The notes: a model not told the origin generated them from the sequence alone. 64,000 bases of DNA from Deltaproteobacteria bacterium (GCA_016219015.1 JACRCL010000031.1:22159-86158), one strand, 5' to 3'; positions 18,251-62,759 are shown, counted from the first letter of the stretch. Program-made: numbers and translations.

Positions 18251-18357
18251 TGGCGGGCCACCCGGACAAGCTGTTAAATGATTACATTTCAGTGCAGGCA
18301 AGTCAATACAAATCAAAATGGCGGGACCCCCGGTCCCGCCATCTAATAGCATATATG

Positions 18358-22593: not shown

Positions 22594-22609
22594 TGCATTT
22601 CCTCCTTTT

Positions 22610-23026: not shown

Positions 23027-23029
23027 CCC

Positions 23030-23330
23030 GTCTCCTTTTGATGATATCCTTAGTTGTTTGTAAATAATATGTACAATTTGGAACAATTCTATCTTAATAC
23101 GTGCTTTCTAACTTTAGAATAATTCTATTATAGAACATATTCCTATTTTGTCAAGTGATATCCATCATACTTCGCAAAAAAATATCTAACGCATTTAACT
23201 ATTTGATTTTGTTGATTATTTTATAAAAGGGAGGGCTCTTTTGAGGTGAATAAACAAGAACGGTTGTAATATAGTGCTTTTAATGCACAATAGAAAAGAA
23301 GCACCTTGCCTGCAACCCGTAATTAACCCG
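23030..23330 (-). promoter_or_regulatory. AT-rich perR-ahpC control region with Fur/PerR-box-like 7-1-7 inverted repeats
   Basis: Locally about 30% GC. TTAGAATaATTCTAt and neighbouring TAGAACAtATTCCTA/GGAACAATTCT half-sites resemble the PerR box consensus TTATAATnATTATAA. Confidence 0.4.
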
Positions 23331-23336
23331 TATAAT

Positions 23337-23450
23337 TGAACACGCACAGCGAGCGCATTCCCCGCTGCTTGCGGCGGGGTTTAGCGAGCGAATCGAAATT
23401 TTTTCCTTTTGTGTCGAAGATTCCCCGCAGCTTGCTGCGGGGAGATTCAA
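23337..23450 (+). repeat. family C two-hairpin element copy 1 (sense orientation, 207 nt upstream of the CopD/HemJ-like gene)
   Basis: TGAACACGCACAGCGAGCGCATTCCCCGCTGCTTGCGGCGGGGTTTAGCGAGCGAATCGAAATTTTTTCCTTTTGTGTCGAAGATTCCCCGCAGCTTGCTGCGGGGAGATTCA. It is the exact reverse complement of 24698-24810. Confidence 0.9.
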
Positions 23451-23451
23451 T

Positions 23452-23563
23452 GGGTATGCCAGCCGCAATCCCGTCGCTTTAGCGCCCAAGTCAAGGCCGG
23501 CAAATAAAAATGACCTTCCGTACCATCAAAATTCTCCGCCATTTATGCGGAGAATTTTCATTA
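23452..23563 (+). repeat. interspersed repeat family B copy 2
   Basis: Homologous to 18358-18465. Ends in TTCTCCGCcatttatGCGGAGAATTTTCAT (stem plus T-run). Confidence 0.8.
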
Positions 23564-23656
23564 TTGATTTCCGTCATTTTAAAGGTAAGATTTTCATGTG
23601 ATATTCTATAAGTTCAAACGCCTGAAAAAGACTTCCGAAAATACAGGAGGGAACGG

Positions 23657-24151
23657 ATGTTATTCTATTTGATGCACATAGTGCATCTTCTGACGGTGAT
23701 ACTCTGGATAGGGGGGCTTGCCTTCGTCACGATGATAGTGCTCCCAATGGCGATAAAGACCCCGGACGCGTTGCAGAAGGTACTGCTCTTCCAGAGGGTC
23801 GAGCACAGGTTCGCGAAGGTCGCGAGGGGCTATAACCTCGTCACAGGCGCATCGGGCATTATAATGATGCTCCTGATGGGCTGGCATAAGCTCCTCTTTA
23901 CAAGGGCCGGGATACCCCTTACCGTCATGACGCTCGTCTGGGTCTTCTGGTTCGTCATGCTCTTCGGGCTGGAGCCCTTCATAATAAAGAAGATGCTCGA
24001 CAGGATGGCCAAAGGCGGGGCGCAGATGGACATAGACGCCGTCTTTACGCGGCTGAACAGGATGCATTACTTCATGGTAGCCATCTCCCTTGCGGCCGCG
24101 GCCGCCGGGGCGCTTACAGCCCACGGCCCGTTCTCGGCCTATCTCGGCTGA
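23657..24151 (+). CDS. polytopic membrane protein, CopD/HemJ-like (DUF-type) hypothetical
   Basis: 164 aa, 4-5 TM, conserved His in TM1 (MHIVHLLTVILWIGGLAF). AGGAGGG RBS. Confidence 0.5.
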   Translation: MLFYLMHIVHLLTVILWIGGLAFVTMIVLPMAIKTPDALQKVLLFQRVEHRFAKVARGYNLVTGASGIIMMLLMGWHKLLFTRAGIPLTVMTLVWVFWFVMLFGLEPFIIKKMLDRMAKGGAQMDIDAVFTRLNRMHYFMVAISLAAAAAGALTAHGPFSAYLG

Positions 24152-24693
24152 GTCCGGGGGGTGGAGGTTTGCCGGGTGGCTTTAAGAGAGCTATTGCCCT
24201 CTACCGCGAGGAGCGCCTTTTTTATCCCGACCCCGCCGGTATAGCCGCCGAGCCCGCCGTCGCCTTTGACGACCCTGTGGCACGGCACGATTACCGGCGC
24301 CGGGTTGGCGCCGCAGGCGTTGCCCACGGCCCTTGCGCCATGCGGTTTCCCAATTTGCCCGGCTATCCAGCCATAGCTCTTAACCGAGCCCCACGGTATG
24401 GACCTGATCGCCTCCCATACCTTTTTTTGAAAAGGGGACCCTGAAAGGGCCAGGGGCAGGTCGAACTCCACGGGCCTGCCCTTGAAATACTCATCGAGCG
24501 TCTTGAACGCCTTATTGAAGAAGGCTTTGTCCTCTTGCGGCAGGGCCCCGTACCTGGCCTTTGTCCTTCTTAAAAAGCCCTTTTCATCGCCTATCGAGAC
24601 TTCCGCTATCTTCCCGTCTATAGCCAAAATAAAGACCCTGCCTATGGGGGCGCGGTAGCAGGCGAACGATATCATGCAAGTTTTTTTCTTCAT
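24139..24693 (-). CDS. ogt: methylated-DNA--protein-cysteine S-methyltransferase
   Basis: Active-site motif VPCHRVV and HTH GKPHGARAVGNACGANP. The ORF-track start 24738 (MCRRFPAACCGEIQR) translates the family-C repeat. The likely start is MKKK at 24693. Confidence 0.8.
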   Translation of the reverse strand: MKKKTCMISFACYRAPIGRVFILAIDGKIAEVSIGDEKGFLRRTKARYGALPQEDKAFFNKAFKTLDEYFKGRPVEFDLPLALSGSPFQKKVWEAIRSIPWGSVKSYGWIAGQIGKPHGARAVGNACGANPAPVIVPCHRVVKGDGGLGGYTGGVGIKKALLAVEGNSSLKATRQTSTPRTQPR

Positions 24694-24697
24694 CCTT

Positions 24698-24810
24698 TGA
24701 ATCTCCCCGCAGCAAGCTGCGGGGAATCTTCGACACAAAAGGAAAAAATTTCGATTCGCTCGCTAAACCCCGCCGCAAGCAGCGGGGAATGCGCTCGCTG
24801 TGCGTGTTCA
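24698..24810 (-). repeat. family C two-hairpin element copy 2 (sense strand is minus; abuts the ogt start)
   Basis: Identical (as reverse complement) to 23337-23450. Its 3' end, ...GGGGAGATTCAAAGG, runs into the ogt ATG. Confidence 0.9.
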
Positions 24811-24905
24811 TGATAAACCGGGAGCGCCCCGGAAGGCAAACCCTTTGTCCTTTGACTTATCTTTTTGATTCTGATATTTTGGAAAAAGCAACCCTAACCA
24901 CTGCC

Positions 24906-25412
24906 ATGAAGAAAGTAATCTACATATTAAATGACCTTGTTAAAAAAGGTATTGTCGAGAGATACGCCATCGGCGGAGCTGTGGCGGTTATTTTCTATGC
25001 GGAAACCCTGAACACCAAGGATGTTGATGTTTTTGTAACCACTCACGTAACAAGGTCGAAAACAGGTATTGTCCATCTCGGTTCCATATACGAGCACCTA
25101 AAAAAAGCCGGCTACAAGATGGAAGGCCAGTATTTTATCATTGATGGTGTTCCCGTTGACTTCATAGCCGCTTATGACGAACTTACCCTTGAGGCAGTAG
25201 ATGACGCTGTAGGTAGATTATATGATAAAATTAAAGTGAAGGTTTTCCGGCCTGAATATCTCATAGCTATAGCCTTACAGACAGGAAGGCCGCAGGATTT
25301 AAGAAAGATTGATCTGTTGACGACCGAAACTAAGCTTGACGGAAAACTTTTGAAGGATATTTTGAAGCGTCACGGCTTAATTGAAAAATGGAGAAGTTAT
25401 AACAATGGATAA
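24906..25412 (+). CDS. minimal nucleotidyltransferase-fold protein (pol-beta superfamily, hG[GS]...DxD), hypothetical; within a low-GC island
   Basis: YAIGGAVAVIFYAETLNTKDVDVFV (GG...DVD) plus the downstream acidic FIIDGVPVDF. Putative TTGACT-N17-TATTTT promoter at 24853-24881. Locally about 38% GC. Confidence 0.5.
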   Translation: MKKVIYILNDLVKKGIVERYAIGGAVAVIFYAETLNTKDVDVFVTTHVTRSKTGIVHLGSIYEHLKKAGYKMEGQYFIIDGVPVDFIAAYDELTLEAVDDAVGRLYDKIKVKVFRPEYLIAIALQTGRPQDLRKIDLLTTETKLDGKLLKDILKRHGLIEKWRSYNNG

Positions 25413-25599
25413 GGAAAGATATTTCAAAGAAGCTAAAAAATTTAATGCGAAGGTTTTTGCGTCAAAAGAAAAGATGCGAAAGACCTGGGCAAAAAAGGCT
25501 GTAAAGGAAAAAATCAAGGAACTTGTGAAACTCCATGAGATGACTGCGGCTCTACATCCAGAATTGAGGAAAATTATCCCTTGGAGATTAAAAAAGTAA
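25405..25599 (+). CDS. small lysine-rich protein, translationally coupled to the nucleotidyltransferase-fold gene (ATGGATAA overlap)
   Basis: 64 aa, MDKERYFKEAKKFNAKVFASKEKMRKTWAKKAVKEKIKELVKLHEMTAALHPELRKIIPWRLKK. Its start codon overlaps the upstream stop. No HEPN Rx4-6H motif. Confidence 0.4.
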   Translation: MDKERYFKEAKKFNAKVFASKEKMRKTWAKKAVKEKIKELVKLHEMTAALHPELRKIIPWRLKK

Positions 25600-25815
25600 A
25601 TTTACATGAGTTATTCGTCGTAGAACTTGATGAACTTTATTGAGGGAATATTACAATCAGAAAACCAAGTTAGAATGTTTAGGTTTTGGTAAAAAGTTTA
25701 AACAAAATAAGGGGTGATGAAAATATGCCGTCTGAAATCTCAGGGTTGGCTGTAGAATTGTTAGAAGCAGAAGGTTTCACAATTCACGTGCGGCATAATC
25801 CTGCAAAATATCAAA

Positions 25816-25854
25816 AGAGATAGAAACCCTGTAAGGTTTATCTCTTTATTTTTT
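25816..25854 (+). terminator. intrinsic terminator at the end of the low-GC island
   Basis: AGAGATAGAAACCctgtaaGGTTTATCTCT followed by TTATTTTTT. Confidence 0.7.
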
Positions 25855-25928
25855 AGGGCAAAACGGGAAACCAAGCCATAAATCAAGGGGTTAAGTTTTT
25901 ATTATAAAACCACTTTCACGGAGGTAAC

Positions 25929-26318
25929 ATGAGAAAGATTTCAGCCGCTTCCTGTGCGCTTTTAGCGGCCCTGCTCCTCTTTGCCTTTTCTCCCGCCTTT
26001 GCCGGCGGCGGGCATACGGTGATAACAGGGCCCGAGCTTGAGACGATGATGAAGGACGGCAAGCCCGTCGTTGTAGTCGATGTGAGGGAGCCGGAGCTCT
26101 TCGCGAAAGGCCATGTACCCGGCGCCATAAACATCCCGTACGAGACCGCGCGCGGCAGGATATTGAAGGAGCTCTCGCCGAAAGACAGGATAGTATTTAT
26201 CTGCCACGGCGGGCCGATGGGCGACGAGCTCGGAGAGGTGCTCACGAACAACGGCTACGGGAGCGTCTATAACGTAAAGGGCGGGATGAGGAAGTGGTCC
26301 GGGCCTCTGGCCAAATAA
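25929..26318 (+). CDS. secreted single-domain rhodanese (sulfurtransferase)
   Basis: Signal peptide. Catalytic Cys loop ICHGGPMG. HVPGAINIP. Confidence 0.8.
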   Translation: MRKISAASCALLAALLLFAFSPAFAGGGHTVITGPELETMMKDGKPVVVVDVREPELFAKGHVPGAINIPYETARGRILKELSPKDRIVFICHGGPMGDELGEVLTNNGYGSVYNVKGGMRKWSGPLAK

Positions 26319-30792: not shown

Positions 30793-32427
30793 ATGGAAAA
30801 TCTCCTTGAAGGGCTCGATAGAGAACAACGCGAGGCCGTATCCTCAAGCTCGAAGCGCCTCCTCGTAGCCGCCCCTCCGGGCAGCGGCAAGACAAGGGTG
30901 CTATCCCTGAGGTTCGCCCGGCTTATAAAAGACGGCGTTGACCCGTCCACGCTCCTTGCCGTCACTTTTACGAACAGGGCCTCTATCGAGATGAGGGAGC
31001 GGATCTCGGCGCTCCTTCCCATAGACCCGGCGCTCCTTAATATCGGCACATTCCACAGCTCCTGCCTGAAGCTCCTTAAAAAAAAGACGCCCCTGCCGGT
31101 ACTCTACGGGAGGGAGGAGCAGAGGAAGGTATTGGCCTCCCTCGGGGCAAAGAGGATCGACACCCTTCTGGAGAGGTTCTCCTCTTTCAAGAATTCCGGC
31201 GTCCCCCTCTCCGAAGAAGAGCAAGCGGCCTTTCACGCCTATCGTGAAGCCCTCGGCTCGCAAGGCGCCCTCGACCTCGACGACCTCGTCCCCGAAGCTA
31301 TAAGCCTCATTGAAAAAGAACCGGGTATATCCCCTTTCCTCCATCTCCTCGTTGACGAGTATCAGGACATAAACCCCGTGCAGGCAAGGCTCGTAAGGCT
31401 CCTGGCGAAAGAGTCCGTATTCGCCATAGGCGACCCCGACCAGGCGATATATTCATTCCGGGGCTCGAGCGTCAGGGCCTTTACGGGCTTTACGAACGAT
31501 TACCCCGGCTGCGAGGTGATAAACCTCAAGAGGAACTACCGCTCTTTTGCTTCGATTGTGAACGCCTCCTCGGCCCTGATAGCGCATAACACCGACAGGA
31601 TTGAAAATACAGCCCAGGCTTTGAAGGAAGGCGGGGAGATAACAGCCGTGGAGTGCGGCTGCGAAAGGGCGGAGGCCGGCTTCATCATAAAGGAGATAGA
31701 GGCCATGATGGGAGGGCTCAGCAGCCTCACCGTAAAAGACCACGGTGACCTAAAGTTCTCGGACTTCGCCGTGCTCTTCCGCACGAACAGGCAGGGGGAA
31801 GCCCTGGCAGAGGCGTTCGGCAGGTCGCCCCTGCCCTACCACTACGCGGGGCCTCCGGGGGGCGGTTTTTATGGGTTCATGGAGGCCCTCAGGGCCTCCG
31901 AGATAAAAGACGATATATCGCTTCCCGGCCTGATAGAGGCTACGGGCAAGGCCATCGCGGCGGATAGATACCTTTCAGGCCTTTTCCTCCACTCCGCGAA
32001 AGCCTTCGGCAGCCGCCCGGCGAAAGATGTCTTGCCGCAATTCCTCGACGAGATGCTCCTGAGCGGCCCTTCCGACAACCTCGATATAAAGGCCGACAAG
32101 GTAAACTTACTAACGCTCCATTCTGCAAAGGGGCTCGAGTTCAGGGTCGTATTCATAGCGGGGTTCGAGGACGGCCTGATCCCGTTCACCCCGAAATGGA
32201 ATGAGGCGGATATAGAGGAGGAAAGAAGGCTGCTCTACGTGGCCATCACCCGCTCAAAAGAAAGGCTTTACCTCGTCTCTTCGGACAAGAGGAAGGTCTT
32301 CGGAGAGGAGATACGCCCCGAGCGCTCGCGCTTTTTAAAAGAGCTGCCCCCGGCGCTTTTAAAGAAAAGGACCATCGAGCAAAAAAAGTTAGTAAGAAAG
32401 CCCGTGCAGAAGGGGCTGTTTGAATAA
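30793..32427 (+). CDS. UvrD/Rep/PcrA-family ATP-dependent DNA helicase (short, 544 aa)
   Basis: Motif I AAPPGSGKTRV, motif II VDEYQDINP, FRGSSVRAF. Motif VI-like TLHSAKGLEF ... LLYVAITRSK. Confidence 0.8.
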   Translation: MENLLEGLDREQREAVSSSSKRLLVAAPPGSGKTRVLSLRFARLIKDGVDPSTLLAVTFTNRASIEMRERISALLPIDPALLNIGTFHSSCLKLLKKKTPLPVLYGREEQRKVLASLGAKRIDTLLERFSSFKNSGVPLSEEEQAAFHAYREALGSQGALDLDDLVPEAISLIEKEPGISPFLHLLVDEYQDINPVQARLVRLLAKESVFAIGDPDQAIYSFRGSSVRAFTGFTNDYPGCEVINLKRNYRSFASIVNASSALIAHNTDRIENTAQALKEGGEITAVECGCERAEAGFIIKEIEAMMGGLSSLTVKDHGDLKFSDFAVLFRTNRQGEALAEAFGRSPLPYHYAGPPGGGFYGFMEALRASEIKDDISLPGLIEATGKAIAADRYLSGLFLHSAKAFGSRPAKDVLPQFLDEMLLSGPSDNLDIKADKVNLLTLHSAKGLEFRVVFIAGFEDGLIPFTPKWNEADIEEERRLLYVAITRSKERLYLVSSDKRKVFGEEIRPERSRFLKELPPALLKKRTIEQKKLVRKPVQKGLFE

Positions 32428-32630
32428 TAGCAGTTAATGTCTTAAACCAAACCCCCTATCCCTCCATCCCTTTTTCTCCCGAACCTGACAAATGTCATAT
32501 TTAACCCCTCTATTTTATTCACTTTTTTTGGGTTTACCTCTAACCTGCCCTTAATCTCTATGTAGTATAATGGAATCAAGATAAGAACGAAAAACGAACT
32601 CTAACGATTTAGCTTACAGGAGGTGGAAAG

Positions 32631-32735
32631 ATGGAAAGGGACAAGAAGATAGCGAACGCGATATATGTCGGTGTAGCGGTTCTCTTTACGACGATAATGC
32701 TCGCCGGGGCCTCGCTTCCCGGATACTGGGCGTAA
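32631..32735 (+). CDS. micropeptide 1 of a tandem paralogous trio (34 aa, single TM)
   Basis: MERDKKIANAIYVGVAVLFTTIMLAGASLPGYWA. GGAGGTGGAAAG-ATG RBS. TATAAT -10 at 32569-32574. Not in the ORF track (below the 60 aa cutoff). Confidence 0.5.
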   Translation: MERDKKIANAIYVGVAVLFTTIMLAGASLPGYWA

Positions 32736-32912
32736 CCTTAAAGCTACCTCTAAAAATTGTTCTTTTTCCTGATCTCTGTGTCAGGGCAAAAATAAAAATG
32801 CTCACATATTACCATATATGCTCCGCTTTTTATTTCCGCCCTTCCTTGACCTCAGAAAAAATTCCTAATTTTTAGAGGCACCCTTAAAAAAACTTTAACG
32901 GAGGATAAAAAA

Positions 32913-33017
32913 ATGGAAAAGGAAATAAAGATAGCCAACGGGTTCTACGTGGGAGTGACGGCGTTCCTTACCGCGGTCATGCTCTTCTCAGGCAATATCA
33001 CCGGGTACCTGGCGTAA
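32913..33017 (+). CDS. micropeptide 2 (34 aa, single TM)
   Basis: MEKEIKIANGFYVGVTAFLTAVMLFSGNITGYLA. RBS GGAGGATAAAAAA-ATG. Confidence 0.5.
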   Translation: MEKEIKIANGFYVGVTAFLTAVMLFSGNITGYLA

Positions 33018-33042
33018 GGTTTTTTTCAAGGAGGTGATTGGA

Positions 33043-33162
33043 ATGGACAGGGAAAAGAAGATAGCCAACGCGTTATACATCGGGATAGCGGCCCTTTTGA
33101 CCACGGCGATGCTCGCGGGAGCGCTCCTGCTGCCGCGCATGCCTCAGGGGTTCTTCGCGTAG
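33043..33162 (+). CDS. micropeptide 3 (39 aa, single TM)
   Basis: MDREKKIANALYIGIAALLTTAMLAGALLLPRMPQGFFA. RBS GGAGGTGATTGGA-ATG, 25 nt after peptide 2. Confidence 0.5.
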   Translation: MDREKKIANALYIGIAALLTTAMLAGALLLPRMPQGFFA

Positions 33163-33175
33163 GCTTTAAAAAGTA

Positions 33176-33213
33176 AAAAGGAGGGCGGCTTTTAGCCTCC
33201 CTCCTTTTTTTTT
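33176..33213. terminator. strong bidirectional intrinsic terminator closing the micropeptide locus and the convergent DJ-1 gene
   Basis: AAAAAGGAGGGCGGCttttaGCCTCCCTCCTTTTTTTTTT. Confidence 0.8.
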
Positions 33214-33223
33214 ATTTTAAAAT

Positions 33224-33772
33224 TTACACCTTCGCCAATACCCCCTTATTCACCTCTCTTGCCTTTTCCTGCCCGAAGAGCGCCTCCACAAGCCTGAACG
33301 CGAACTCCATCGCGGTACCCGGCCCCTGGCTCGTGATCATGTTACCGTCCACCACGACCCTTTCGTCAGAGACCCGTTCATTCCTCAACTCGTCCCTTAC
33401 GGACGGATGGCTCGTTATCCTCCGCCCCTCTATCGCCCCCATGGCCGAGAGTACCGTCGGGGCGGCGCATATCGCCGTCACAAGCCCCTTCTTCTTTATA
33501 AGGCCCTCAATCACTTTCCTTACGCTGGCGTCCTTCTTGAGGTTCTCCGCCCCCACCGCCCCGCCGGGCAGGACTATCATGTCGAAGTCCGTGCCCGCGA
33601 CCTCGTCCATCAGCCCGTCCGTCAGGACCTTTATCCTGCTCCGGCCCTCCACAGGGCCCTGGACGGTCCCTGCCACGACGACCTCGGCCCCCGCCCTCCT
33701 TAATATATCAACGACCGTCAGCGCCTCTATCTCCTCGAAACCGGGCGCAAGCGGCACCAGGACCTTCTTCAT
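33224..33772 (-). CDS. DJ-1/PfpI family protein (class I glutamine amidotransferase-like)
   Basis: Nucleophile elbow AICAAP. Start MKKVLVP has an AAGGAGG RBS. The ORF-track extension MCRRFPFKGGL translates the repeat. Confidence 0.85.
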   Translation of the reverse strand: MKKVLVPLAPGFEEIEALTVVDILRRAGAEVVVAGTVQGPVEGRSRIKVLTDGLMDEVAGTDFDMIVLPGGAVGAENLKKDASVRKVIEGLIKKKGLVTAICAAPTVLSAMGAIEGRRITSHPSVRDELRNERVSDERVVVDGNMITSQGPGTAMEFAFRLVEALFGQEKAREVNKGVLAKV

Positions 33773-33783
33773 AAGACCTCCTT

Positions 33784-33877
33784 TGAATGGGAATCTTCGA
33801 CACAAAAGGAAAAAATTTCGATTCGCTCGCTAAACCCCGCCGCAAGCAGCGGGGAATGCGCTCGCTGTGCGTGTTCA
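33784..33877 (-). repeat. family C element copy 4 (lacks the promoter-distal... actually gene-proximal hairpin; the 3' end supplies the AAGGAGG RBS context of the DJ-1 gene)
   Basis: TGAATGGGAATCTTCGACACAAAAGGAAAAAATTTCGATTCGCTCGCTAAACCCCGCCGCAAGCAGCGGGGAATGCGCTCGCTGTGCGTGTTCA. Identical to copy 2 except for a 20-nt hairpin deletion. Confidence 0.85.
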
Positions 33878-34056
33878 AGGCATAATCCCCCGAGATTAAT
33901 GGATTATACAGCCTTTTTACCCCTTGTCAAAGACCGCCGCCTGACTTGCGCACCCGTGATTTTAGGTCTAAGATTAAATAGCAGATAAGCGGTCCCGCGA
34001 ACGCTTAGGAATGGCTTTAGACAAGACTGCACAACTAATTAATAAGGAGCGCTGTC

Positions 34057-35894: not shown

Positions 35895-37118
35895 CTACGC
35901 CTTCGCCGTCTCCATATTGTCCTCCTCCACGGCCGCCTTCAACCTTTCGAGCACGCCGGGTATGGCGGATATGACCCTGTTCCAGTTCGGTATTAGGGGC
36001 GCGCCCAGCGGGTTGTCCATGATGGCCTTTGCCGCGGCCGATATGGCGTTGGTGAAGGCGTCTACGGTCATCGCCTCCTCGTGCCTGTCAAACCTCAGCC
36101 CGTTTATGGCCGCGTCCCCCTCGTACCTCATTATCGTGTCCTCCGCGAACCTCAAGTAAGCCACCACGAGCGTTTTGAAGAACGCCTCGGAGAAGACCAG
36201 CCCTTCGGACGAAAGGGTCCTGAAAAGGGTCTTGGCTATGTCTATGCTCATCTTCATGAGCCCCGTGGAAGGGTCTTCAGCGGACAGCGCCTGGTGCTTG
36301 TGCTCATAGTTCTCCGAGATGTCTACCTGGCAGACCCGCTTGGCCGAGTAGTTCCTGTAGACCTCGCTCAGGACGCCCACCTCGAGCCCCCAGTCCCACG
36401 GAATGCGGTTGACCCTGGCGAGGTCTATGACCATGCTGAACTCGCCGGACAACGGGTACCTGAAGCTGTCGAGGAACTCAAGGAAAGCGTGGCCTCCGAC
36501 CATCTTCTGCAAGGCCCGCACTATAGGCGTGAGGAATAGCCTCGTGACCCTGCCGTGGAGCTTGTCCGTGACCCGAGCGTAGTAGCCCTTGCAGAAGACG
36601 TAATCGAGCGTGGGGTTCGCGACCGGGTAGCAGAGCCTGCCGAGGAGGTCGAGGTCGTAATTCATGATGTCGCAGTCGTGGAGGGCTATTATGCTGGACT
36701 TCCCGCTGGCGAGCACGTACCCGTAGGACGTCCAGGCCGACCTCCCTTTGCCGTCCTGCCCGGCGCTCACGCCGTTTTCCTCGAACGTCCTGTATATCTC
36801 CTGAAGCCTCCTGCCCTTCGTGTGTATTATCTTAACGTCCTGCGGGAGCGCGGACATTATCTCCTTCACGTGGCGGAACTCGTCATTCGTTGCGGGCCCA
36901 AGCGCGAGGACGACCTCGTTTATGAACCGGGCCCCTTTAAGCCTTTCGATTATCCCCTCCATGGCCTCGCTTACGACGTCCGGGTAGAGCGCCGGGAGTA
37001 TGAGCGCTATGGGCCGCACCCTGCCGTAGAGCTCCAGCTCGGCGATGAGCTTTTCCGTCTTTGGCCTGCCGAGCCTGTGGAGCGTGGCGACCATCGCCGG
37101 ATGATAGAAGTCAGCCAT
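35895..37118 (-). CDS. retaining GT-A glycosyltransferase of the mannosylglycerate / glucosyl-3-phosphoglycerate synthase type (GT78/GT81-like)
   Basis: Pattern GKGRSAWTSYGYVL...IIALHDCDIMNY (like GKGDGM...FYDADITSF of MgS/GpgS). GRVTRLFLTPIVRAL. PLSGEFSM (like PLGGELLM). Architecture-level match, recalled from memory. Confidence 0.55.
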   Translation of the reverse strand: MADFYHPAMVATLHRLGRPKTEKLIAELELYGRVRPIALILPALYPDVVSEAMEGIIERLKGARFINEVVLALGPATNDEFRHVKEIMSALPQDVKIIHTKGRRLQEIYRTFEENGVSAGQDGKGRSAWTSYGYVLASGKSSIIALHDCDIMNYDLDLLGRLCYPVANPTLDYVFCKGYYARVTDKLHGRVTRLFLTPIVRALQKMVGGHAFLEFLDSFRYPLSGEFSMVIDLARVNRIPWDWGLEVGVLSEVYRNYSAKRVCQVDISENYEHKHQALSAEDPSTGLMKMSIDIAKTLFRTLSSEGLVFSEAFFKTLVVAYLRFAEDTIMRYEGDAAINGLRFDRHEEAMTVDAFTNAISAAAKAIMDNPLGAPLIPNWNRVISAIPGVLERLKAAVEEDNMETAKA

Positions 37119-37211
37119 GGATAGCCTCTCTGCGCGGGCCTGTGAAATCGTCCAAAAGCCGCTGACGGGCTTTTACAAACTTTAGGGAAGCTCTGATTAA
37201 TTATGTTTCCT

Positions 37212-37300
37212 TGTCATTCTGAGGGAGCTTTAGCGACCGAAGAATCCCGTGACTTCTGATTTGTCTATATGCGAGATTCTTCGCTGCGCTCAGAATGACA
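37212..37300. repeat. MITE-like inverted-repeat element family A copy 2
   Basis: TGTCATTCTGAGGGAGCTTTAGCGACCGAAGAATC...GATTCTTCGCTGCGCTCAGAATGACA. Lies in the mscS-GT intergenic region. Confidence 0.8.
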
Positions 37301-37423
37301 CGCGGTTATGAATTAACCAGAGGTTACTTGGAGATACTTTTAGAGGATAATTGGGATATCGCGGGCTGTCAAGCCGGGGGGCTAAGCGGGAGGCTGATTT
37401 TGATCTATGCCGAAATTGCGAGC

Positions 37424-37462
37424 GACGAAGACAACGAAGCAGATGGACTTTTTGGGCAGCCT
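37424..37462 (+). repeat. repeat family D copy 1 (GACGAAGACAACgAAGCAGATGGACTTTTTgggCAGCCT)
   Basis: 92% identical to 50201-50239. Related 30-nt motif ACGCAGATGGGCGTTTTTCAGCATAAAA at 62768 and 62925. Confidence 0.75.
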
Positions 37463-38506
37463 CTAATCCCTTATCTGGACTGTCTTTATTGGGAAGGGTA
37501 TCTCCATCCCTTCCTGCCTGAACCTCTTGAAGATGCGTTTGATCAGCTCGTTCTGGACAGGGGCGCGGTCCGTGTACCCGGCAACATGGCATACCAGCGT
37601 GAACTCGAGCCACGCGTCGCCGATGCTGAAGATAACGCCCGGGGCCGGCTCGGAAAGGAGCCCCTTCACGGCGCCGGAGGCCCTTACGGCCTCGTCCTTC
37701 AATACGGACTCCACCCTGTCAGGGTCGGCGTCTATCCCGGCCCTCACCTTGACAACGGCCGTGGTGCGCCTCTCGGGCATGCAGTAGTTGGTTATTATGG
37801 ACTGCGAGAGCTTGTTGTTGGGGACTATTATCAGGTTGTTCGAAAGCTCCCGTATCTTCGTCGTCCTCCAGCCGATATCGGCCACGTGCCCCTCCTCGCC
37901 GGAGGCGAGTTTTATGTAGTCGCCGAGCCTTATCGATTTTTCCGCCAGTATATGCATGCCCGAAAATAAGTTTGAAAGTGTGTCCTGCAGCGCGAGGGCC
38001 ACGGCGAGGCCGCCCACGCCCAGGGCCGTCAATAGCGGGGTTATGGATATGCCGAGGCTGTTCAAGACTATGAGGAACCCTATCGCGAAGATGACGGCCT
38101 TCATCACTGTGCGCGACAGGCCCGTAAGAGGGGCGCTCATGGTGGACTTCTCCACCGCGCCCTGCACGGCCCTCGATCTTATGTTCGCGGCCGCCAGAGT
38201 TACCGAAAGGATTATGAGCACGTAGAGGACCGACAGGCCGTAATTGACGTACTTCGCCGGGAAGGGGGAGGTGTCGAGCGCGATATAAAGGCCTACGGCA
38301 AGCGCCCAGAATATGGACGGGTGCTTGAGGGACTCGATTATTATGTCGTCGAGCTGCGTTTCCGTCTTCTTCGCCCACCTGTGGAAATAGCCGAAGGCCG
38401 CCTTCCTCGCTATGAGGAGGACTATGGACGAGCCTATGAATACGGCTGAGAAGATCAGATAGGCCTTGATGGTATCGGCGTCCGCGTGGATCGATATGCC
38501 CTGCAT
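37463..38506 (-). CDS. mscS: small-conductance mechanosensitive channel (MscS family)
   Basis: MscS core (pore-lining TM3 GVGGLAVALALQDTLSNLFSG, beta-domain GDYIKL...GHVADIGWRTTKIREL...NNLIIVPNSKL-like). Confidence 0.85.
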   Translation of the reverse strand: MQGISIHADADTIKAYLIFSAVFIGSSIVLLIARKAAFGYFHRWAKKTETQLDDIIIESLKHPSIFWALAVGLYIALDTSPFPAKYVNYGLSVLYVLIILSVTLAAANIRSRAVQGAVEKSTMSAPLTGLSRTVMKAVIFAIGFLIVLNSLGISITPLLTALGVGGLAVALALQDTLSNLFSGMHILAEKSIRLGDYIKLASGEEGHVADIGWRTTKIRELSNNLIIVPNNKLSQSIITNYCMPERRTTAVVKVRAGIDADPDRVESVLKDEAVRASGAVKGLLSEPAPGVIFSIGDAWLEFTLVCHVAGYTDRAPVQNELIKRIFKRFRQEGMEIPFPIKTVQIRD

Positions 38507-38577
38507 TTCTCCGCCTTCGGGATAAGATTATACTGCCCCGGAATTATATACTTTACGGGCGCGCGAATCAACCCGCA

Positions 38578-39282
38578 TCAGAGCATGTCTATCGTATCCT
38601 TCGTATCCTTCTCGCGCTTCCTCTTTACGAGGTATTCTATCAGCTCCCTCGCGGAGTCCCTCGCACCGAGCCCGAACGCGAGCGCGAGGGCCAGGGCTAT
38701 CGCGCCGAAGGCTATGGAGAAGGCGGCGAAGACTATCCTCGGGGCTATGGAGAGCTGTTCGAGGGCCATCGCGGTAATGAGTATGAGGAGCATCAATCTT
38801 ACGGATGATGCTACGAGCCTCGATGACTGGACCCCGGCGTTTACCGCGGCCAGCAGGGCGGCCCTTGCGAGGAAGCCCGCGAAGAAGTACCCGAAGACGA
38901 GGAGCAGGAGCGCCGAGAAGAACCTCGGCAGGTACATGAAGAATATCTCTATCAGCCTGTTGGCGGTCTCGATCCCGAGCGAGCCGAGCCCGGCCATGAA
39001 AAACATCAATATCACCAGCCAGTAGGTGAAAAGGATTATGAACTCACCCGGAGGGGTCCATATCCCGCTTATGCGGAAGGCTGATGAAAGCCCCACCTCC
39101 TCGCTCCAGCTTTCAAATTTTATCGCCCTGAAGACCCTTCGGAGCAGGAACTTTACAATGGAGGCGAGTATGAAGCCCAGCCCCGCTATTATGAGCATCA
39201 CGAGCAGACCCGGTATGAAGCCCGTCGCCTTCCCGTAGAATACCTTAAGGTGCTCCATTATCTCGCCAGCAAGCCTGTCCAT
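38578..39282 (-). CDS. membrane protein with conserved-TM-helix repeats (MscS-associated TM_helix family), hypothetical
   Basis: 234 aa with repeated amphipathic/TM helices. Adjacent to mscS. Weak family assignment. Confidence 0.45.
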   Translation of the reverse strand: MDRLAGEIMEHLKVFYGKATGFIPGLLVMLIIAGLGFILASIVKFLLRRVFRAIKFESWSEEVGLSSAFRISGIWTPPGEFIILFTYWLVILMFFMAGLGSLGIETANRLIEIFFMYLPRFFSALLLLVFGYFFAGFLARAALLAAVNAGVQSSRLVASSVRLMLLILITAMALEQLSIAPRIVFAAFSIAFGAIALALALAFGLGARDSARELIEYLVKRKREKDTKDTIDML

Positions 39283-39298
39283 AAGCTCACCCCCTTTT

Positions 39299-40564
39299 TT
39301 ACCAGCGCTCCAGAAGATATCCCTTCTGCCTTTCGTATTCCTCGCACACCCTCTCGACCTCGTCCTCGGCCTCGTCGTCGCTCATCTCGGCGACCTCGAG
39401 GAAGAACGACGCCGTCCTGCCGAAATACAGCGGCAGGAGCGACTTAAGGAGGTGCTCTTCCGGCAATTTCCTGTGGCAAGAGGCGAGGATGAAGTCGTAC
39501 ACTATCCGTGCCCAGAGGGCCTTCGGGAACCTGAACCCGTGGGTATCCTTTTGGGATATCTCCTCAAGCGCGTCTATGATATCCCTTGCGATGAACCGCT
39601 CCCAGACCTCCTTCAGGTTGGACACCCCCACCCTGAAGTCCGCGAGCATCCTCCCCATGTCAGCCTTTACGGGCACGACCCCGACCGAGTATTTGAACCC
39701 GAAGGTCGGCACGTCGGAGGCGTCCCTTATCTCCTTCCACTCCCTGTAATGTTTCTCGGTTAGGGAGAAGAGCGACCCCACGACCTGGACGAACATCTCC
39801 CTCAGGTCCGCCCCCGGGTCCTTGGGGTCGTGTATCTTGGCGCCGAGGTAAGACTGGCAGACCTTGAACCTGTTAGCGAGCGCCTCGGTCGTCATCCAGA
39901 TGTCTATCCCGAACCGGGCCACGTCCGTCTGCCAGACGTCCTGGGCGAGGTAGAACCCGGCCATCCTGCCGGAGAACCCGAACTCTCCGCCTATGGGCTG
40001 GCGTATCTTCCTGCCGTACAGGGCCCTTGTCACGGGGTATATGATGGAGTTGGTTATGGTGCCGTCGTACCTGTGCCTCGAATAGAGCGGGGCGACGAAG
40101 TCGAACCCTTCGTTCAGCACCGGGGCTATCAAGAGCTCTATCCATTCCGGGGTTATGGACCGGAGGTCCGCGTCGACGACGCAGCAGGCCTTTGCCCCGA
40201 GCGAGAGGGCGGAGCTGAATATGGCCCGAAACGCGCTGCCTTTTCCGGGTATGCCGTGGTATGGGGTCGAGATGCGGTTTATGGCCGTGAGCCTGTGTGG
40301 CAGGAATATGGCCTTGTGGTCGAGCGTGGCCTTCAGTACCGCGTCCGGGGTGCTGTCCGTGGAGCCCCCGTCCGAGTTTATAATGACCGACCTCTCGCGC
40401 GGGAAGTATTTGCCGAGCCCTGCGTCGACCGCGTTCACCACGTGGCCTATGGTCTTTGAGTTGTTGTAGCTCGCTATCCCGACTATTATGTCCGCCTGGC
40501 CCTGGGGAGCCCTCTTCGCCCCCGCCTCGCCGGAAGCTGCCGGAGTCTGATGCATTTGGGTCAT
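39299..40564 (-). CDS. GT-A (GT2/GT81-like) glycosyltransferase, glucosyl-3-phosphoglycerate-synthase-related
   Basis: IVGIASYNNSKTIGHVV, SDGGSTDST, GKGSAF...CVVDADL, GGEFGFS. Start taken at MTQMHQT (40564) to avoid a 96-nt overlap with the HAD phosphatase gene. Confidence 0.6.
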   Translation of the reverse strand: MTQMHQTPAASGEAGAKRAPQGQADIIVGIASYNNSKTIGHVVNAVDAGLGKYFPRERSVIINSDGGSTDSTPDAVLKATLDHKAIFLPHRLTAINRISTPYHGIPGKGSAFRAIFSSALSLGAKACCVVDADLRSITPEWIELLIAPVLNEGFDFVAPLYSRHRYDGTITNSIIYPVTRALYGRKIRQPIGGEFGFSGRMAGFYLAQDVWQTDVARFGIDIWMTTEALANRFKVCQSYLGAKIHDPKDPGADLREMFVQVVGSLFSLTEKHYREWKEIRDASDVPTFGFKYSVGVVPVKADMGRMLADFRVGVSNLKEVWERFIARDIIDALEEISQKDTHGFRFPKALWARIVYDFILASCHRKLPEEHLLKSLLPLYFGRTASFFLEVAEMSDDEAEDEVERVCEEYERQKGYLLERW

Positions 40565-40590
40565 CCCCGCCTTTTTTGGACCGGCCCGGC

Positions 40591-41421
40591 TCAGCAGGCG
40601 CGCCTTATCGAGGCGTTTATCGAATCGAGTATGCCGTTTACGGCCTTGCCCCACCCTTCGGGGCCGACGCCGTCGGCCCTTATGCACTCGACTGACGTAA
40701 TCTCCTCGAAGCTCCCGTCCTCCTTCTTTACCAGCACCGGGTAGTCCGCCTCCCTGAAAAGGGGCTCGTCATTGAGGTCATTCCCGACGGCTATGAAGAC
40801 AACGTCCGCGTAAAGGGCCCTGTAGTACCTCTTCAGCACCCTTGCGGCCGCGCCCTTGTCGTGCCTGCCGAGGATGTGGTAGAACCTGCCCCTGGTCCAG
40901 TTAAACCCCTTCTCCTCGATAAGCCTCAGAAGCTCCTCCTTTACTCCCGCCTCTTCCTTTACGCCCTCGAACACGAAAGGCTCGTCGAAGTCCCTCTTCT
41001 TGGCAAACTCCGCCTCTTCGAGGCTCAGGCCCGTAAGCCCGGCTATCTCAAAGGCGTCCATGTCGCCGAAGCCTTTTACCCTTGCATTGAGGCTCGCGCG
41101 GATATCGATGAGCGCGGCCCTGACCTCTTCGTAGGGCCTGCCGAGGCTTATCACCTCGTAGCCTTCGGCCCTCATCCTCGTCCCCGCGTGGAAATAACCC
41201 GCTGGGATGAAGATGCCCCCGCCGTTCTCCGAGATGAAGGGGTGGTTGTTGCCGAGCTTCCGCCTTATGGGCTCTATCTCCGCCCGTGTCCTGCTCGAAG
41301 TTATCACGAGCGGGACGCCCTCTGCCCTGACCCTGTCAAGCGCCCCCCTCGCCGCCTCGAAGGAGTAGTCCCTCGGGTGCAGCAGCGTGCCGTCGAGGTC
41401 CGTGAATATAACGGCCTTCAT
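40591..41421 (-). CDS. HAD-IIB phosphatase, mannosyl-/glucosyl-3-phosphoglycerate phosphatase (MpgP/YedP) family
   Basis: MKAVIFTDLDGTLL at the N-terminus, GNDLNDEPLF motif IV and the Cof/YedP cap architecture. Confidence 0.7.
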   Translation of the reverse strand: MKAVIFTDLDGTLLHPRDYSFEAARGALDRVRAEGVPLVITSSRTRAEIEPIRRKLGNNHPFISENGGGIFIPAGYFHAGTRMRAEGYEVISLGRPYEEVRAALIDIRASLNARVKGFGDMDAFEIAGLTGLSLEEAEFAKKRDFDEPFVFEGVKEEAGVKEELLRLIEEKGFNWTRGRFYHILGRHDKGAAARVLKRYYRALYADVVFIAVGNDLNDEPLFREADYPVLVKKEDGSFEEITSVECIRADGVGPEGWGKAVNGILDSINASIRRAC

Positions 41422-42419
41422 GAGCGCTCCCTTGAAAGGAAATAGACGTTCAGCGCGCCGAGCGCGAGTATCGCGAGAGAACCCCACCCGAACCTCAGGA
41501 AGGCCCTTTTTCCGGGACGGCTTATGATGCCTATGAGCGCAACAGACGTCATGAGTATCGCCATGAGCCCCGTGACCGCGTGGGCCCCGGAGATATTTGA
41601 AAGGAGCGGGCCCTTCAGGAAGAATACGTCGTCTACTGCAAGGAGCGCCATGTTGAACATGTTGCTCCCGAGGAGGTTGCCGATAGCGAGGTCGTGGGCG
41701 CCTATGCGGATTGCCGAAAAGGACACCGCCATCTCCGGCAGTGTCGTGACTAACGCCACGAATACCGTACCCATGAAGGTCTTCCCCAGACCGGAGGCGT
41801 CCGACAGGCCAGAGGCCAGGAACGGCAATATCGAGGCCGCCCCGATGACGGCCAGGGCGTTCAGGGAGTACATGAAAACCGCCTTTTTCGCGGATACGTG
41901 CGGGTACAGGACTTTTTCAACATCCGCCGCAAATTTTTTAAGGACATTTTTCTCATACAGATAAACGAGCCTTACGCCAAATATATAGACATATATAATC
42001 AGGGGCGTATAAAGGCCGATATGATAAACCGACGGGATAACCGGCCCTGCCATTATGGAGACGGACGCCTTTCCCAATAGCGCTATCCCGAAAGCCGAGG
42101 AAAGGAGGTGCGATTGTCCGGCCTTCCGGAATACCGGGCTGCCTTTGTCCATGGGGTCGAGGAGCGCGAGCGTAATAAGGTTGAATACGCACGCGCCCAT
42201 GAGGTCCCCTGCCGCGATGTCCGGCGCGCCGGCGATAGTGACGGAGCTTATCCCGTTTACGAATTCCGGCAGGGAGGTCACCGTTGCCAGTAACACCATC
42301 CCTGTCCAGGCCCTGCCGAGGCCGGCCTTCTCCGCTATGACGTCGCCGTACCTCGAAAGGCCGATGCCGGCGGCTATTATCACCACGGCACACAATATGA
42401 ACCCGGACAGAAGTAGCAC
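41418..42419 (-). CDS. Ca2+/Na+ antiporter, CaCA family (YrbG-like)
   Basis: Two alpha-repeats with GSSLPEL-like motifs (ATVTSLPEFVNG ... LVTTLPEMAVS). Confidence 0.8.
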   Translation of the reverse strand: MLLLSGFILCAVVIIAAGIGLSRYGDVIAEKAGLGRAWTGMVLLATVTSLPEFVNGISSVTIAGAPDIAAGDLMGACVFNLITLALLDPMDKGSPVFRKAGQSHLLSSAFGIALLGKASVSIMAGPVIPSVYHIGLYTPLIIYVYIFGVRLVYLYEKNVLKKFAADVEKVLYPHVSAKKAVFMYSLNALAVIGAASILPFLASGLSDASGLGKTFMGTVFVALVTTLPEMAVSFSAIRIGAHDLAIGNLLGSNMFNMALLAVDDVFFLKGPLLSNISGAHAVTGLMAILMTSVALIGIISRPGKRAFLRFGWGSLAILALGALNVYFLSRERS

Positions 42420-42514
42420 TCTCGCCCTCGTTACACCCTATAACTATAAATATGGCATAAGATTACGGGGTGTCAATAACGCCGCGGTTGACTTACGGCC
42501 CGGTTGAAATTAAA

Positions 42515-43354
42515 ATGTGTGGGATGGCAAGTACCTTTAGATATATCCTGACGCTGTCTTTCATCGCCTGCCTTTCCGTATGCCTTCCCGGCCGCGCGGC
42601 GGCCTTCGCGGTCAACGGGCCGGAGGACGTGCCCGGCTATGTAGTGGTTATCGACGCGGGCCACGGGGGAGACGATAAGGGCGCCATAGGGCCTGACGGC
42701 ATGGAAGAGAAGGACGTCACACTGAGCCTCGCCATGAAGCTCGCGGAGGCTCTAAGGCCATCAGGCTTCCACGTCCTCCTTACAAGGACCGAAGACGTCT
42801 TTACCCCTCTTGAGGAGAGGACGGCCTTCGCCAACAGGAACGGGGCTGACCTGTTCGTGAGCATCCACGCCAACGCCGCGGTCTCAAGGGAGGCGAACGG
42901 CATAGAGACGTTCTTCCTGAACTTCGAGTCCACGGACGAGGACGCCCGGAGGGTGGCGGCCTTCGAGAACAACGCGCCCCTGATGGTAAGGAACGCCTCG
43001 GAGGGAGACGGCGACCTCAAGGACATACTGCTCGACCTGGAAAATACCGAGGCCCACCATGAAAGTTCGAGGCTCGCCGAGGCCGTGCACACAAACATGC
43101 TCAAGTTTTCCGCCGGCAGCGAGAACAGGGGCATAAAGCAGGCGCCGTTTACCGTACTCGTGGGAGCGACGATGCCCGCGATACTCGTGGAGGCGGGGTT
43201 CATCTCGAACCCGAAGGAGGAAAAGCGGCTTGCCTCGAGGAAGTGGCAGGAGAAGATGGCCGCCGCGATAGCCGAAGGGATACTCGGATATAAAAAATCT
43301 TTTGATGGAGGAGGCAGCTTTGTCGGCGTCAAGGAAAGCGTTCACAAGAACTGA
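42515..43354 (+). CDS. N-acetylmuramoyl-L-alanine amidase (Amidase_3, AmiC-like) with signal peptide
   Basis: [16 protein letters not shown] ... [10 protein letters not shown] ... ETFFLN. The start among the three in-frame ATGs 42470/42515/42524 is ambiguous. Confidence 0.8.
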
Positions 43355-62737: not shown

Positions 62738-62745
62738 GGTGGCCC

Positions 62746-62759
62746 CTCAGAATGACAAC
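62746..62759. repeat. solo right-arm fragment of MITE family A (CTCAGAATGACAAC)
   Basis: Matches the right terminal repeat of 17898-17988 including the flanking ACTTCG. Confidence 0.6.

Follow-up and report, generated by a model that had tools for sequence, protein, structure and literature searches.

A deltaproteobacterial glycosyl-glycerate locus with two candidate synthase routes and a conserved membrane partner

The 64,000-nucleotide stretch of an uncultured deltaproteobacterial MAG analyzed here (the window) carried, on its minus strand between positions 35895 and 42419, a probable glycosyl-glycerate compatible-solute or stress-protection locus, a known kind of locus to which a conserved membrane partner was added. 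All six ORFs reported in the original prediction were present, and the identity given to each was backed by a significant family match. The prediction of a locus for glycosyl-glycerate solutes was also supported, as GpgS-type, MGS/Ggs-type, and MPGP-family enzymes were found together, and relatives of the locus lay beside trehalose, ADP-glucose, glycerate-kinase, and K+/cation-transport genes. A single anionic compatible solute, most likely alpha-glucosylglycerate (GG), is probably made by two parallel routes encoded at the locus and would serve under osmotic or nitrogen stress. In the first route, the glycosyltransferase GT1 (GpgS) would join NDP-glucose to 3-phosphoglycerate, and the MPGP-family phosphatase (GpgP) would remove the phosphate; in the second, the glycosyltransferase GT2 would join an NDP-sugar, probably ADP-glucose, to free D-glycerate in a single step. 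GT2 would be made together with the PF05552 membrane protein, an MscS channel would release the solute on osmotic downshift, and a CaCA antiporter would balance cations around the negatively charged solute.

The three enzyme types have a counterpart in Persephonella marina, in which ggs, gpgS, and gpgP are reportedly clustered. The likening of GT2 to Ggs was made through the annotations of its relatives, and differences were evident: here, the set was interleaved with the PF05552 protein, MscS, and CaCA, with gpgS behind a 344-nt spacer, and P. marina is a thermophile, whereas the host here was a mesophilic-looking deltaproteobacterial MAG. According to PMC3736172, ADP-glucose and D-glycerate are the substrates that GgS joins, and GG is made in P. 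marina by dual pathways, one with a single step and one with two.

By its sequence, GT1 (35895 to 37118, minus strand, 407 aa) was classed as a GpgS-type enzyme, a full-length homologue of the archaeal, Methanococcoides/Persephonella-type glucosyl-3-phosphoglycerate synthases. It scored 352.5 bits (E 2.7e-105) against the GpgS_Meth model NF040724, with model positions 6 to 401 of 402 aligned. This is half of the equivalog cut-off of 700 bits, under which the L089 relative likewise fell (330), implying that GT1 belongs to another clade, as a homologue and not as a certified orthologue or equivalog; thus, relative to the two-step GpgS/GpgP pathway of Methanococcoides burtonii, GT1 aligned end to end and an MPGP-family phosphatase was present in the same locus, but the clade differed. 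Many GT1 relatives at 63 to 76% identity were named GpgS by JGI, and the top PDB sequence matches of the GT1 family profile were GT81 GpgS enzymes. Alignment to M. hassiacum GpgS placed the DXD motif HDCD (D148 and D150), G189-R-V-T192, and P222-L-S-G-E226, of which the GRVT loop binds the acceptor carboxylate and PLSGE discriminates against mannose (PMC2581804).

The candidate GpgP was the HAD-IIB phosphatase (40591 to 41421, minus strand, approximately 276 aa), whose ORF spanned 41487 to 40591 and whose likely start was the ATG at 41421, giving a product that begins MKAVIFTDLDGT. It scored 218.4 bits against the MPGP family model TIGR01486 (cut-off, 164.75) and 202 bits against the MpgP equivalog TIGR02461, under the cut-off of 244. 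The nucleophile motif FTDLDGT was present, and relatives of the phosphatase were 272 to 273 aa long. No source of free D-glycerate was encoded within the window. A glycerate 2-kinase gene was found in 21 of 80 related loci, and in Gallionellaceae, an MPGP-type HAD domain was fused to glycerate 2-kinase; as a secondary possibility, such fusions may mark an unrecognized route that supplies or recycles the free D-glycerate for GT2.

GT2 (39299 to 40564, minus strand, 421 aa) was most likely a single-step MGS/Ggs-type synthase, a placement made from its predicted MGS fold, its residues, and the names of its relatives. Its ORF extended up to 40687 and ended at 39299, and the real start was taken as the ATG at 40564 or 40555. 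In a Foldseek search with the AF2 model of GT2 (pLDDT, 84), the best PDB match was the single-step mannosylglycerate synthase (MGS) of Rhodothermus marinus (2y4k_A; E 8e-15, 412 columns, TM 0.69/0.76), which covered the full length, including the helical C-terminal domain (CAZy GT78; PDB 2BO4 and 2Y4K); the next family, GT81 GpgS, reached a TM of 0.40. The GT2 family profile also matched the MGS sequence (E 6e-6). Residues K109, D132xD134, R164, D168, and I171-T172 of GT2 corresponded to K76, D100xD102, R131, D135, and I138-T139 of MGS, and QPIGGE, GID222, and H246 corresponded to QPLGGE, GID192, and H217. This shared set includes the DXD motif, the metal-binding His, the Lys, the Ile-Thr/Arg acceptor residues, and the P-[LI]-G-G-E loop; among 49 family members, all of the listed positions through I171-T172, together with D222 and H246, were invariant or nearly so. 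GT2 itself did not match the Pfam MGS_GT family PF21969 even at E values up to 10, whereas its relative P0023 scored 30.3 against a threshold of 27, and by these sequence comparisons the GT2 family was a distant sister of MGS outside the Pfam seed clade. Two relatives, P0023 (70% identity) and P0484 (34% identity), carried the submitter name "Glucosylglycerate synthase".

The assignment of GT2 and/or GT1 to cell-envelope or exopolysaccharide synthesis, with an unrelated phosphatase, appeared highly improbable. It would account for the generic JGI label "involved in cell wall biosynthesis" on some GT2 relatives, for a weak match of GT2 to PF00535 (E 2.7e-5), and for an N-acetylmuramoyl-L-alanine amidase gene that adjoins the locus in divergent orientation. 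However, both glycosyltransferases lacked TM segments and domains of the lipid-carrier type, GT1 was a full-length GpgS match, and the GT2 model matched ArnC, GtrB, and DPMS poorly (TM of approximately 0.38, versus 0.69 for MGS). In addition, other envelope-polysaccharide genes were linked to the family in none of the 80 loci.

The donor sugar of GT2 is probably glucose, in which it would differ from R. marinus MGS. It is doubtful, although conceivable, that GT2 is a mannosyl transferase, acting either as MGS on GDP-mannose and D-glycerate or, in the manner of MpgS, on 3-PGA with the MPGP phosphatase, so that the locus would make mannosylglycerate too. Among proteins of solved structure, MGS is closest to GT2 in both fold and sequence, and the PIGGE loop of GT2 resembles the PLGGE of MGS and not the Ser-containing PLSGE of glucose-specific GpgS, which leaves mannose among the candidate donor sugars; Gly in a loop of this type, as in MGS, has been linked to mannose tolerance (PMC2581804). 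The MPGP-family phosphatase gene directly upstream and the fusion of His_Phos_1 to a GT2-like domain in P0490 would also fit a mannosyl enzyme. Against it, identity to MGS was only about 20%, MGS R218 and Y220 were replaced in GT2, and submitters chose the name Ggs, not MGS. Furthermore, GlgC-like ADP-glucose pyrophosphorylase genes lay directly upstream of GT2 in 7 of the 80 loci, and no GDP-mannose genes were seen.

The original prediction took the two synthase-like glycosyltransferases as a hint of a disaccharide-glycerate product. In such a pathway, GpgS would make GPG, GT2 would attach a further hexose to it or to GG, and the phosphatase would act last, yielding mannosylglucosyl- or glucosylglucosylglycerate through a GT-A enzyme nonhomologous to MggA. 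P. marina reportedly accumulates a glucosylglucosylglycerate, and the operon order of phosphatase followed by GT2 would suit this scheme. Three architectures (P0365, P0366, and P0388) joined GT2-like domains to genuine GT81 GpgS, with both domain orders represented, and enzyme fusions join sequential steps more often than parallel ones. Taken with the phosphatase gene directly upstream of GT2 and the P0490 fusion, these architectures suggest that GT2 might use or produce a phosphorylated compound. Nonetheless, the scheme was judged unlikely, and the hint found no support. The mannosylglucosylglycerate (MGG) pathway known from Petrotoga mobilis and Rhodopirellula baltica (GpgS, MggA, MggB, and MggS) resembles the present set in having GpgS first and a phosphatase last, but PMC3736172 describes its MggA and MggS as GT4 (GT-B) enzymes of approximately 530 aa and MggB of R. 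baltica as a distinct hydrolase; GT1 and GT2 are both GT-A, and no GT4 ORF was found in the 35.8- to 42.5-kb region. GT2, a full-length MGS match, keeps the MGS residues that position the carboxylate of free glycerate (PMC2581804), and family members labeled for a glycosyl-glycerate product carry the Ggs label and no other. Moreover, in about 45% of related loci, neither GpgS nor the phosphatase lay within 5 kb of GT2 and its partner. By analogy with P. marina, parallel routes that both yield one monoglycoside would be the better reading.

The comparison set for gene context comprised the 80 related loci, drawn from many phyla but not including P. marina, with linkage within 5 kb counted over 44 loci and partner adjacency over 74. 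GpgS lay within 5 kb of GT2 in 24 of the 44, and GpgS and the phosphatase both did so in 21. Where GT2 and its partner lacked these neighbors, they often stood behind TreY/GlgC instead; TreY was found in 16 of the 80 loci. Trehalose genes and Kef-like and P-type cation transporters recurred near GT2 relatives, TrkH-TrkA lay upstream of GT2 in a relative at 34% identity, and GT2-like domains were also fused to TrkA_N and Usp domains. These associations, together with MscS, occurred in varied arrangements and point to turgor and ion homeostasis.

The gene most consistently linked to GT2 encoded the PF05552 "conserved TM helix" membrane protein (38578 to 39282, minus strand, 234 aa, approximately five TM helices), which matched PF05552 over two repeats (35 bits; cut-off, 22). 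In 71 of the 74 related loci with room for it, its gene immediately followed GT2 in the same orientation, and the linkage was kept even beside a GT2 of only 34% identity; unlike MscS and CaCA, this protein, which the original prediction named without remark, is a truly conserved companion of GT2. Members of a dozen phyla or more carried the two-gene unit, which in this lineage had a canonical MscS gene as its neighbor. The AF2 model of the partner (pLDDT, 87) was all-helical and had no significant match among PDB folds, the best MscS match covering 93 columns (E 9.7). The protein consisted of PF05552 repeats only, with neither the pore-lining TM3 nor the cytoplasmic beta-domain of MscS, and its best 120 homologues were all approximately 230 to 235 aa long and annotated "hypothetical". 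No such pairing with a membrane protein is known for MGS. The partner may tether or regulate GT2 or handle its product. More tentatively, GT2 and its partner might form a two-component unit in which the partner senses tension or turgor and switches the synthase, or else conducts the anionic solute; a tension or turgor switch would tie the making of compatible solutes to membrane mechanics directly, at the posttranslational level.

The MscS-family mechanosensitive channel (37463 to 38506, minus strand, 347 aa) exceeded the cut-offs of PF21088 (33.4), PF00924 (71.4), and PF21082 (27.8), which represent TM2/3, the beta-domain, and the C-terminal domain, respectively. The YrbG-like CaCA-family cation/Ca2+ antiporter (41418 to 42419, minus strand, 333 aa) matched PF01699 over two repeats (E 1e-20) and scored 77 bits against NF008005, under the equivalog cut-off. 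Within 5 kb of GT2, MscS occurred in 4 and CaCA in 5 of the 44 loci, implying that both are clade-specific accessories; CaCA homologues occurred in 13 of the 80 loci at differing positions, and within the module only these two genes were variably present (loci L001 to L003 versus L004 to L006). These low counts lend little weight to the proposal of a module for synthesis plus emergency release. Ectoine biosynthetic clusters, such as that of Nitrosopumilus maritimus, reportedly include mscS. They offer a parallel in which an operon for a compatible solute and the gene for an MscS-type safety valve are tied together by position, but the solute and enzymes differ, and here the MscS linkage was confined to about 10% of related loci.

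The same low linkage would be expected if the channel and antiporter were incidental and the same enzymes had a nonosmotic role, with GG serving as a nitrogen-limitation solute, a carbon store, or a polysaccharide primer. Some microbes build up GG when deprived of nitrogen (PMC5381378), and in mycobacteria it is the MGLP primer (PMC2674218). The carriers of the locus were mostly groundwater or freshwater MAGs, and salt stress may therefore not be the trigger. A purely nonosmotic role nevertheless seemed quite unlikely, given the recurrent linkage to trehalose, ion-transport, Usp, TrkA_N, and MscS genes or domains and given that no methyltransferase, acyltransferase, or elongating glycosyltransferase genes were found nearby.

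The gene junctions were compatible with coexpression of the first four genes, with the antiporter gene at the head of the likely operon. The CaCA stop overlapped the phosphatase start (ATGA at 41421 to 41418), and the spacers that followed were 26 nt between the phosphatase and GT2, 16 nt between GT2 and the PF05552 partner, 71 nt between the partner and MscS, and 344 nt between MscS and GT1. A promoter-like site 5' of the antiporter gene (42449 to 42476, minus strand) matched 10 of 12 sigma-70 consensus positions and had a TG extension, a pattern match that by itself says nothing of function. Further promoter-like sites, likewise consensus matches only, preceded MscS (38571 to 38543) and GT1 (37372 to 37344).

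The locus had also been described as an island, a label that its setting did not support. A mobile genomic island was rejected because the GC content of the locus (0.576 to 0.596) was unremarkable against approximately 0.57 to 0.60 across most of the window and because the flanks held housekeeping genes (the amidase, RNase PH, Ham1, and citrate synthase on one side and DsbH-like, DJ-1/PfpI, and UvrD genes on the other) in an order that was the same in related MAGs. The MscS-GT1 spacer contained a palindromic REP/MITE-like element (37213 to 37299, no strand assigned) with the arms GTCATTCTGAG.../...CTCAGAATGAC and a predicted RNA fold of -36.8 kcal/mol (z = -4.9), which may serve to delimit or stabilize a transcript. 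A second full copy of this element was located at 17899 to 17986.

An ORF search of the window found six minus-strand ORFs in a row across positions 35895 to 42419, and the six-gene set of the original prediction was borne out, with every ORF present and a family match for each. In transcription order, these were a CaCA antiporter gene at 42419 to 41418 (PF01699; E 1e-20); a HAD-IIB phosphatase gene with a likely start at 41421 and its end at 40591 (TIGR01486, "mannosyl-3-phosphoglycerate phosphatase family," 218 bits against a cutoff of 165); the GT-A glycosyltransferase gene GT2, starting at 40564 or 40555 and ending at 39299; the gene for its partner, a PF05552 "conserved TM helix" protein of 234 amino acids (39282 to 38578); an MscS channel gene with three MscS Pfam domains (38506 to 37463); and, beyond a 344-nt spacer, GT1, encoding a second GT-A enzyme (37118 to 35895). 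As initially called, the phosphatase and GT2 ORFs had long starts that extended into the preceding genes; the lengths of relatives (272 to 273 and 417 to 421 amino acids, respectively) and visible ribosome-binding sites indicated true starts at 41421 and 40564. Because the antiporter stop and the phosphatase start overlap in ATGA, and gaps of only 26 nt and 16 nt follow the phosphatase and GT2 genes, the first four genes look like a single operon. Pattern matching placed putative promoters 5' of the antiporter, MscS, and GT1 genes, and an Rfam search of the whole window detected no RNA element in the locus. The amidase ORF at 42470 to 43354 (+) was listed with a GTG start and 294 amino acids, about 22 to 26 more than the 268 to 272 of its relatives; its true start probably lies 3' of the one listed, in which case the divergent promoter region common to the amidase and antiporter genes would be wider.

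The sequence of GT1 is most consistent with a glucose-specific GpgS. It matched the NCBIfam model NF040724 (GpgS, Methanococcoides type) end to end (E 2.7e-105), with a score that was half of the equivalog cutoff, and many relatives at 63 to 76% identity were labeled glucosyl-3-phosphoglycerate synthase by JGI. The best solved relatives of a 30-member GT1 family profile were GT81 GpgS structures, with the G-R-V-T and P-L-S-G-E loops aligned. In Mycobacterium tuberculosis GpgS, the acceptor carboxylate is bound by Val186/Thr187, and the Ser of PLSGE has been argued to disfavor mannose (PMC2581804).

GT2 was only 22% identical to GT1 across the GT-A core. The AlphaFold model of GT2 (pLDDT 84) matched the Rhodothermus mannosylglycerate synthase (MGS) fold from end to end, with the helical C-terminal domain covered by the alignment (E 8e-15; TM 0.69/0.76), and matched GpgS structures in the GT-A core only (TM 0.40). 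The GT2 family profile (49 sequences) also matched the MGS sequence (E 6e-6), and MGS residues K76, D100xD102, R131, D135, I138-T139, QPLGGE, GID192, and H217 aligned to invariant or nearly invariant family positions. MGS is the archetypal enzyme for synthesis in one step from free D-glycerate. Two GT2-family members, 70% and 34% identical to GT2, bear the submitter name "Glucosylglycerate synthase"; when the names of ten distant cluster representatives were looked up, only two such labels were seen. The name most plausibly derives from likeness to the characterized P. marina enzyme (Ggs), and GT2, likened to that enzyme through the names of its relatives, is a candidate Ggs. The GT2 loop PIGGE resembles the PLGGE of MGS and leaves mannose possible; a mannosyl product is a rival reading of low probability. 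The GgS reaction joins ADP-glucose to D-glycerate, two pathways to glucosylglycerate (GG) coexist in P. marina (GpgS accession ABX75857), and MggA/MggS of the mannosylglucosylglycerate pathway are GT4 enzymes (PMC3736172). Homology thus does not make GT2 an analogue of MggA; an MggA-like function was rejected as requiring a different fold, and the earlier hint of a disaccharide-glycerate product, drawn from the presence of two synthase-like glycosyltransferases, lost its main support. The corrected annotation for the window is one of parallel routes and not of a disaccharide pathway. A cell-wall role for the glycosyltransferases is very unlikely and was rejected because neither fold nor context fits.

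One scan of species-representative genomes returned at least 596 GT2 relatives, and the family comprised 690 clusters at 50% clustering (E <= 1e-30). The best 80 of these relatives were 54 to 80% identical and spanned phyla, including Thermodesulfobacteriota/Deltaproteobacteria, Nitrospirota, Nitrospira, Gallionellaceae, Sulfuricella, Acidobacteriota, Ignavibacteria, Zixibacteria, and others; Persephonella and Petrotoga were absent among these best 80 of at least 596. For counts of gene context, the window proteins were compared by BLAST with the six-frame ORFs from the best 80 loci. The partner gene lay directly 3' of GT2 on the same strand at 71 of the 74 loci with room for it, and this near-obligate, tightly spaced place behind GT2 is the most distinctive result. 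Sulfuricella and Nitrospira isolates are examples of cultured organisms with the pair. At the 44 loci having 5 kb of sequence on either side of GT2, GpgS was found within 5 kb at 24, the phosphatase at 21 (each time with GpgS), CaCA at 5, and MscS at 4.

The partner combines about five predicted TM helices with a charged tail, and its AF2 model was confident and all-helical (pLDDT 87). A fold search against the PDB gave no significant match, local resemblance to MscS TM helices being nonsignificant; a complete MscS channel was rejected, as the MscS pore helix and beta-domain are missing. The best 120 homologues were all unannotated proteins of 230 to 235 amino acids. A literature search turned up no description of the PF05552 partner, and no specific reports emerged on glucosylglycerate in connection with mechanosensitive channels or with Nitrospira, Gallionella, and comparable taxa.

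Two gene contexts recurred. The first was (glycerate 2-kinase and/or phosphatase)-GT2-partner-GpgS; in the second, GT2-partner came after TreZ/GlgB-like, GH57, and TreY genes and a pair of GlgC-like genes. P-type cation ATPases were encoded at 10 loci, and a few had Na+/H+ exchangers. On this evidence, GT2 is linked to the metabolism of glycosyl-glycerates, the supply of ADP-glucose, further compatible-solute genes, and K+/cation homeostasis, as would be expected for an anionic osmolyte. Within the 64-kb window itself, tblastn found no match to glycerate kinase, GlgC, TreY, TrkA/H, or P-type ATPase.

An example of the second context is locus L025 (1956 to 11934), with similar arrangements at L035, L036, L053, L055, L062, and L083: GH57/DUF3536, TreY (maltooligosyl-trehalose synthase; 1459 bits in L025), and two GlgC-like genes lie directly 5' of the Ggs-like gene, which together with its partner occurs there without GpgS or phosphatase, suggesting one operon for both trehalose and glycosyl-glycerate, supplied with ADP-glucose. 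In a Gallionella MAG (L029, 7601 to 9763), a single polypeptide, encoded directly 5' of the Ggs-like gene, contains both an MPGP-family HAD phosphatase (TIGR01486, 235 bits) and a DUF4147/MOFRL glycerate 2-kinase domain. This arrangement occurs in Gallionellaceae, and the same architecture was found at L016, L039, L045, L048, L054, L056, L060, and L075; such a fusion around glycerate is unusual and may bear on D-glycerate supply or recycling. A distant version of the module in the Thermoanaerobaculia MAG GCA_022071945 (L089, 5304 to 15964), with GT2 and partner each 34% identical to those of the window, has TrkH-TrkA 5' of the pair; also present are genes for a CLC channel, an MPGP phosphatase, a GpgS-like protein in convergent orientation, a TreS-like protein, and a sucrose-phosphorylase-like GH13 protein that may be a glucosylglycerate phosphorylase. 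The Ggs/MGS-like domain was also seen in natural fusions (proteins P0365, P0366, P0388, P0397, P0490, and P0361; loci L091 and L094). Three architectures join it to a bona fide GT81 GpgS (NF010496, 397 to 437 bits against a cutoff of 262), in both domain orders and in one case with a Usp domain in between; others contain a TrkA_N domain, a histidine-phosphatase domain, or three tandem copies of the GT2-like domain itself. The phosphatase gene next to GT2 and the fusions with phosphatase or GpgS would also be compatible with a substrate or product that is phosphorylated, or with GT2 acting in sequence; a diglycosyl-glycerate product made in sequence is a rival reading of low probability.

With moderate confidence, we propose a mechanism of dual GG routes, for which the analysis established the gene identities, folds, conserved residues, and linkages, and for which we infer the substrates, stress signal, and partner role. 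GT1 and the phosphatase would make GG via glucosyl-3-phosphoglycerate, and GT2 would make the same or a closely related glycosyl-glycerate straight from free D-glycerate; the partner would anchor or regulate GT2 or handle its product, MscS would provide release on downshock, and the antiporter would aid cation balance. The trigger may be other than salt, because most carriers of the locus are MAGs from groundwater or freshwater and because GG is also a solute of nitrogen limitation (PMC5381378).

The enzymology is already known from the Persephonella-type dual GG pathway, MGS-like synthases, and MPGP phosphatases. The presence of an mscS gene beside genes for solute synthesis has a precedent in ectoine clusters, as reportedly described by Widderich et al. 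in 2016. Setting this locus type apart are the conserved GT2-PF05552 pair and the set of transporter and kinase associations. Few cultured organisms are known to synthesize GG; since the Ggs-type family is so widespread, occurring in at least 596 species representatives, bacteria of groundwater and sediment may commonly use anionic glycosyl-glycerates as stress solutes. The almost invariant pairing is a concrete lead on single-step synthase regulation and the source of free D-glycerate, and further such leads come from the repeated association with glycerate 2-kinase, phosphatases, GlgC, and K+/cation transporters.

The view of the locus as an island did not hold. Its GC content equals that of the rest of the window, and the housekeeping flanks (amidase, RNase PH, Ham1, and citrate synthase on one side; DsbH-like, DJ-1/PfpI, and UvrD on the other) keep the same order in related deltaproteobacterial MAGs, so a mobile island was rejected on composition and synteny. 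The same neighborhood at L001 to L003 retains phosphatase-GT2-partner-GT1 without antiporter and MscS, which are therefore accessory genes. The MscS-gpgS spacer contains a palindromic REP/MITE-like element at 37213 to 37299, with arms GTCATTCTGAGCG...GAAGAATC / GATTCTTC...CTCAGAATGAC and a predicted fold of -36.8 kcal/mol (z = -4.9); a second full copy lies at 17899 to 17986 and a partial copy at 62744 to 62756, and a search of the window gave 7 matches at <=2 mismatches against 1.3 expected. Unrelated to the GG locus are a cobalamin riboswitch at 18083 to 18280 (-) (106 bits) and a Moco/Tuco riboswitch at 2510 to 2633 (-) (66 bits), both above the Rfam gathering score. Low-GC stretches at 22001 to 26000 and 32001 to 34000 (0.47 to 0.51 versus the usual 0.57 to 0.60) are possibly foreign or intergenic-rich DNA.
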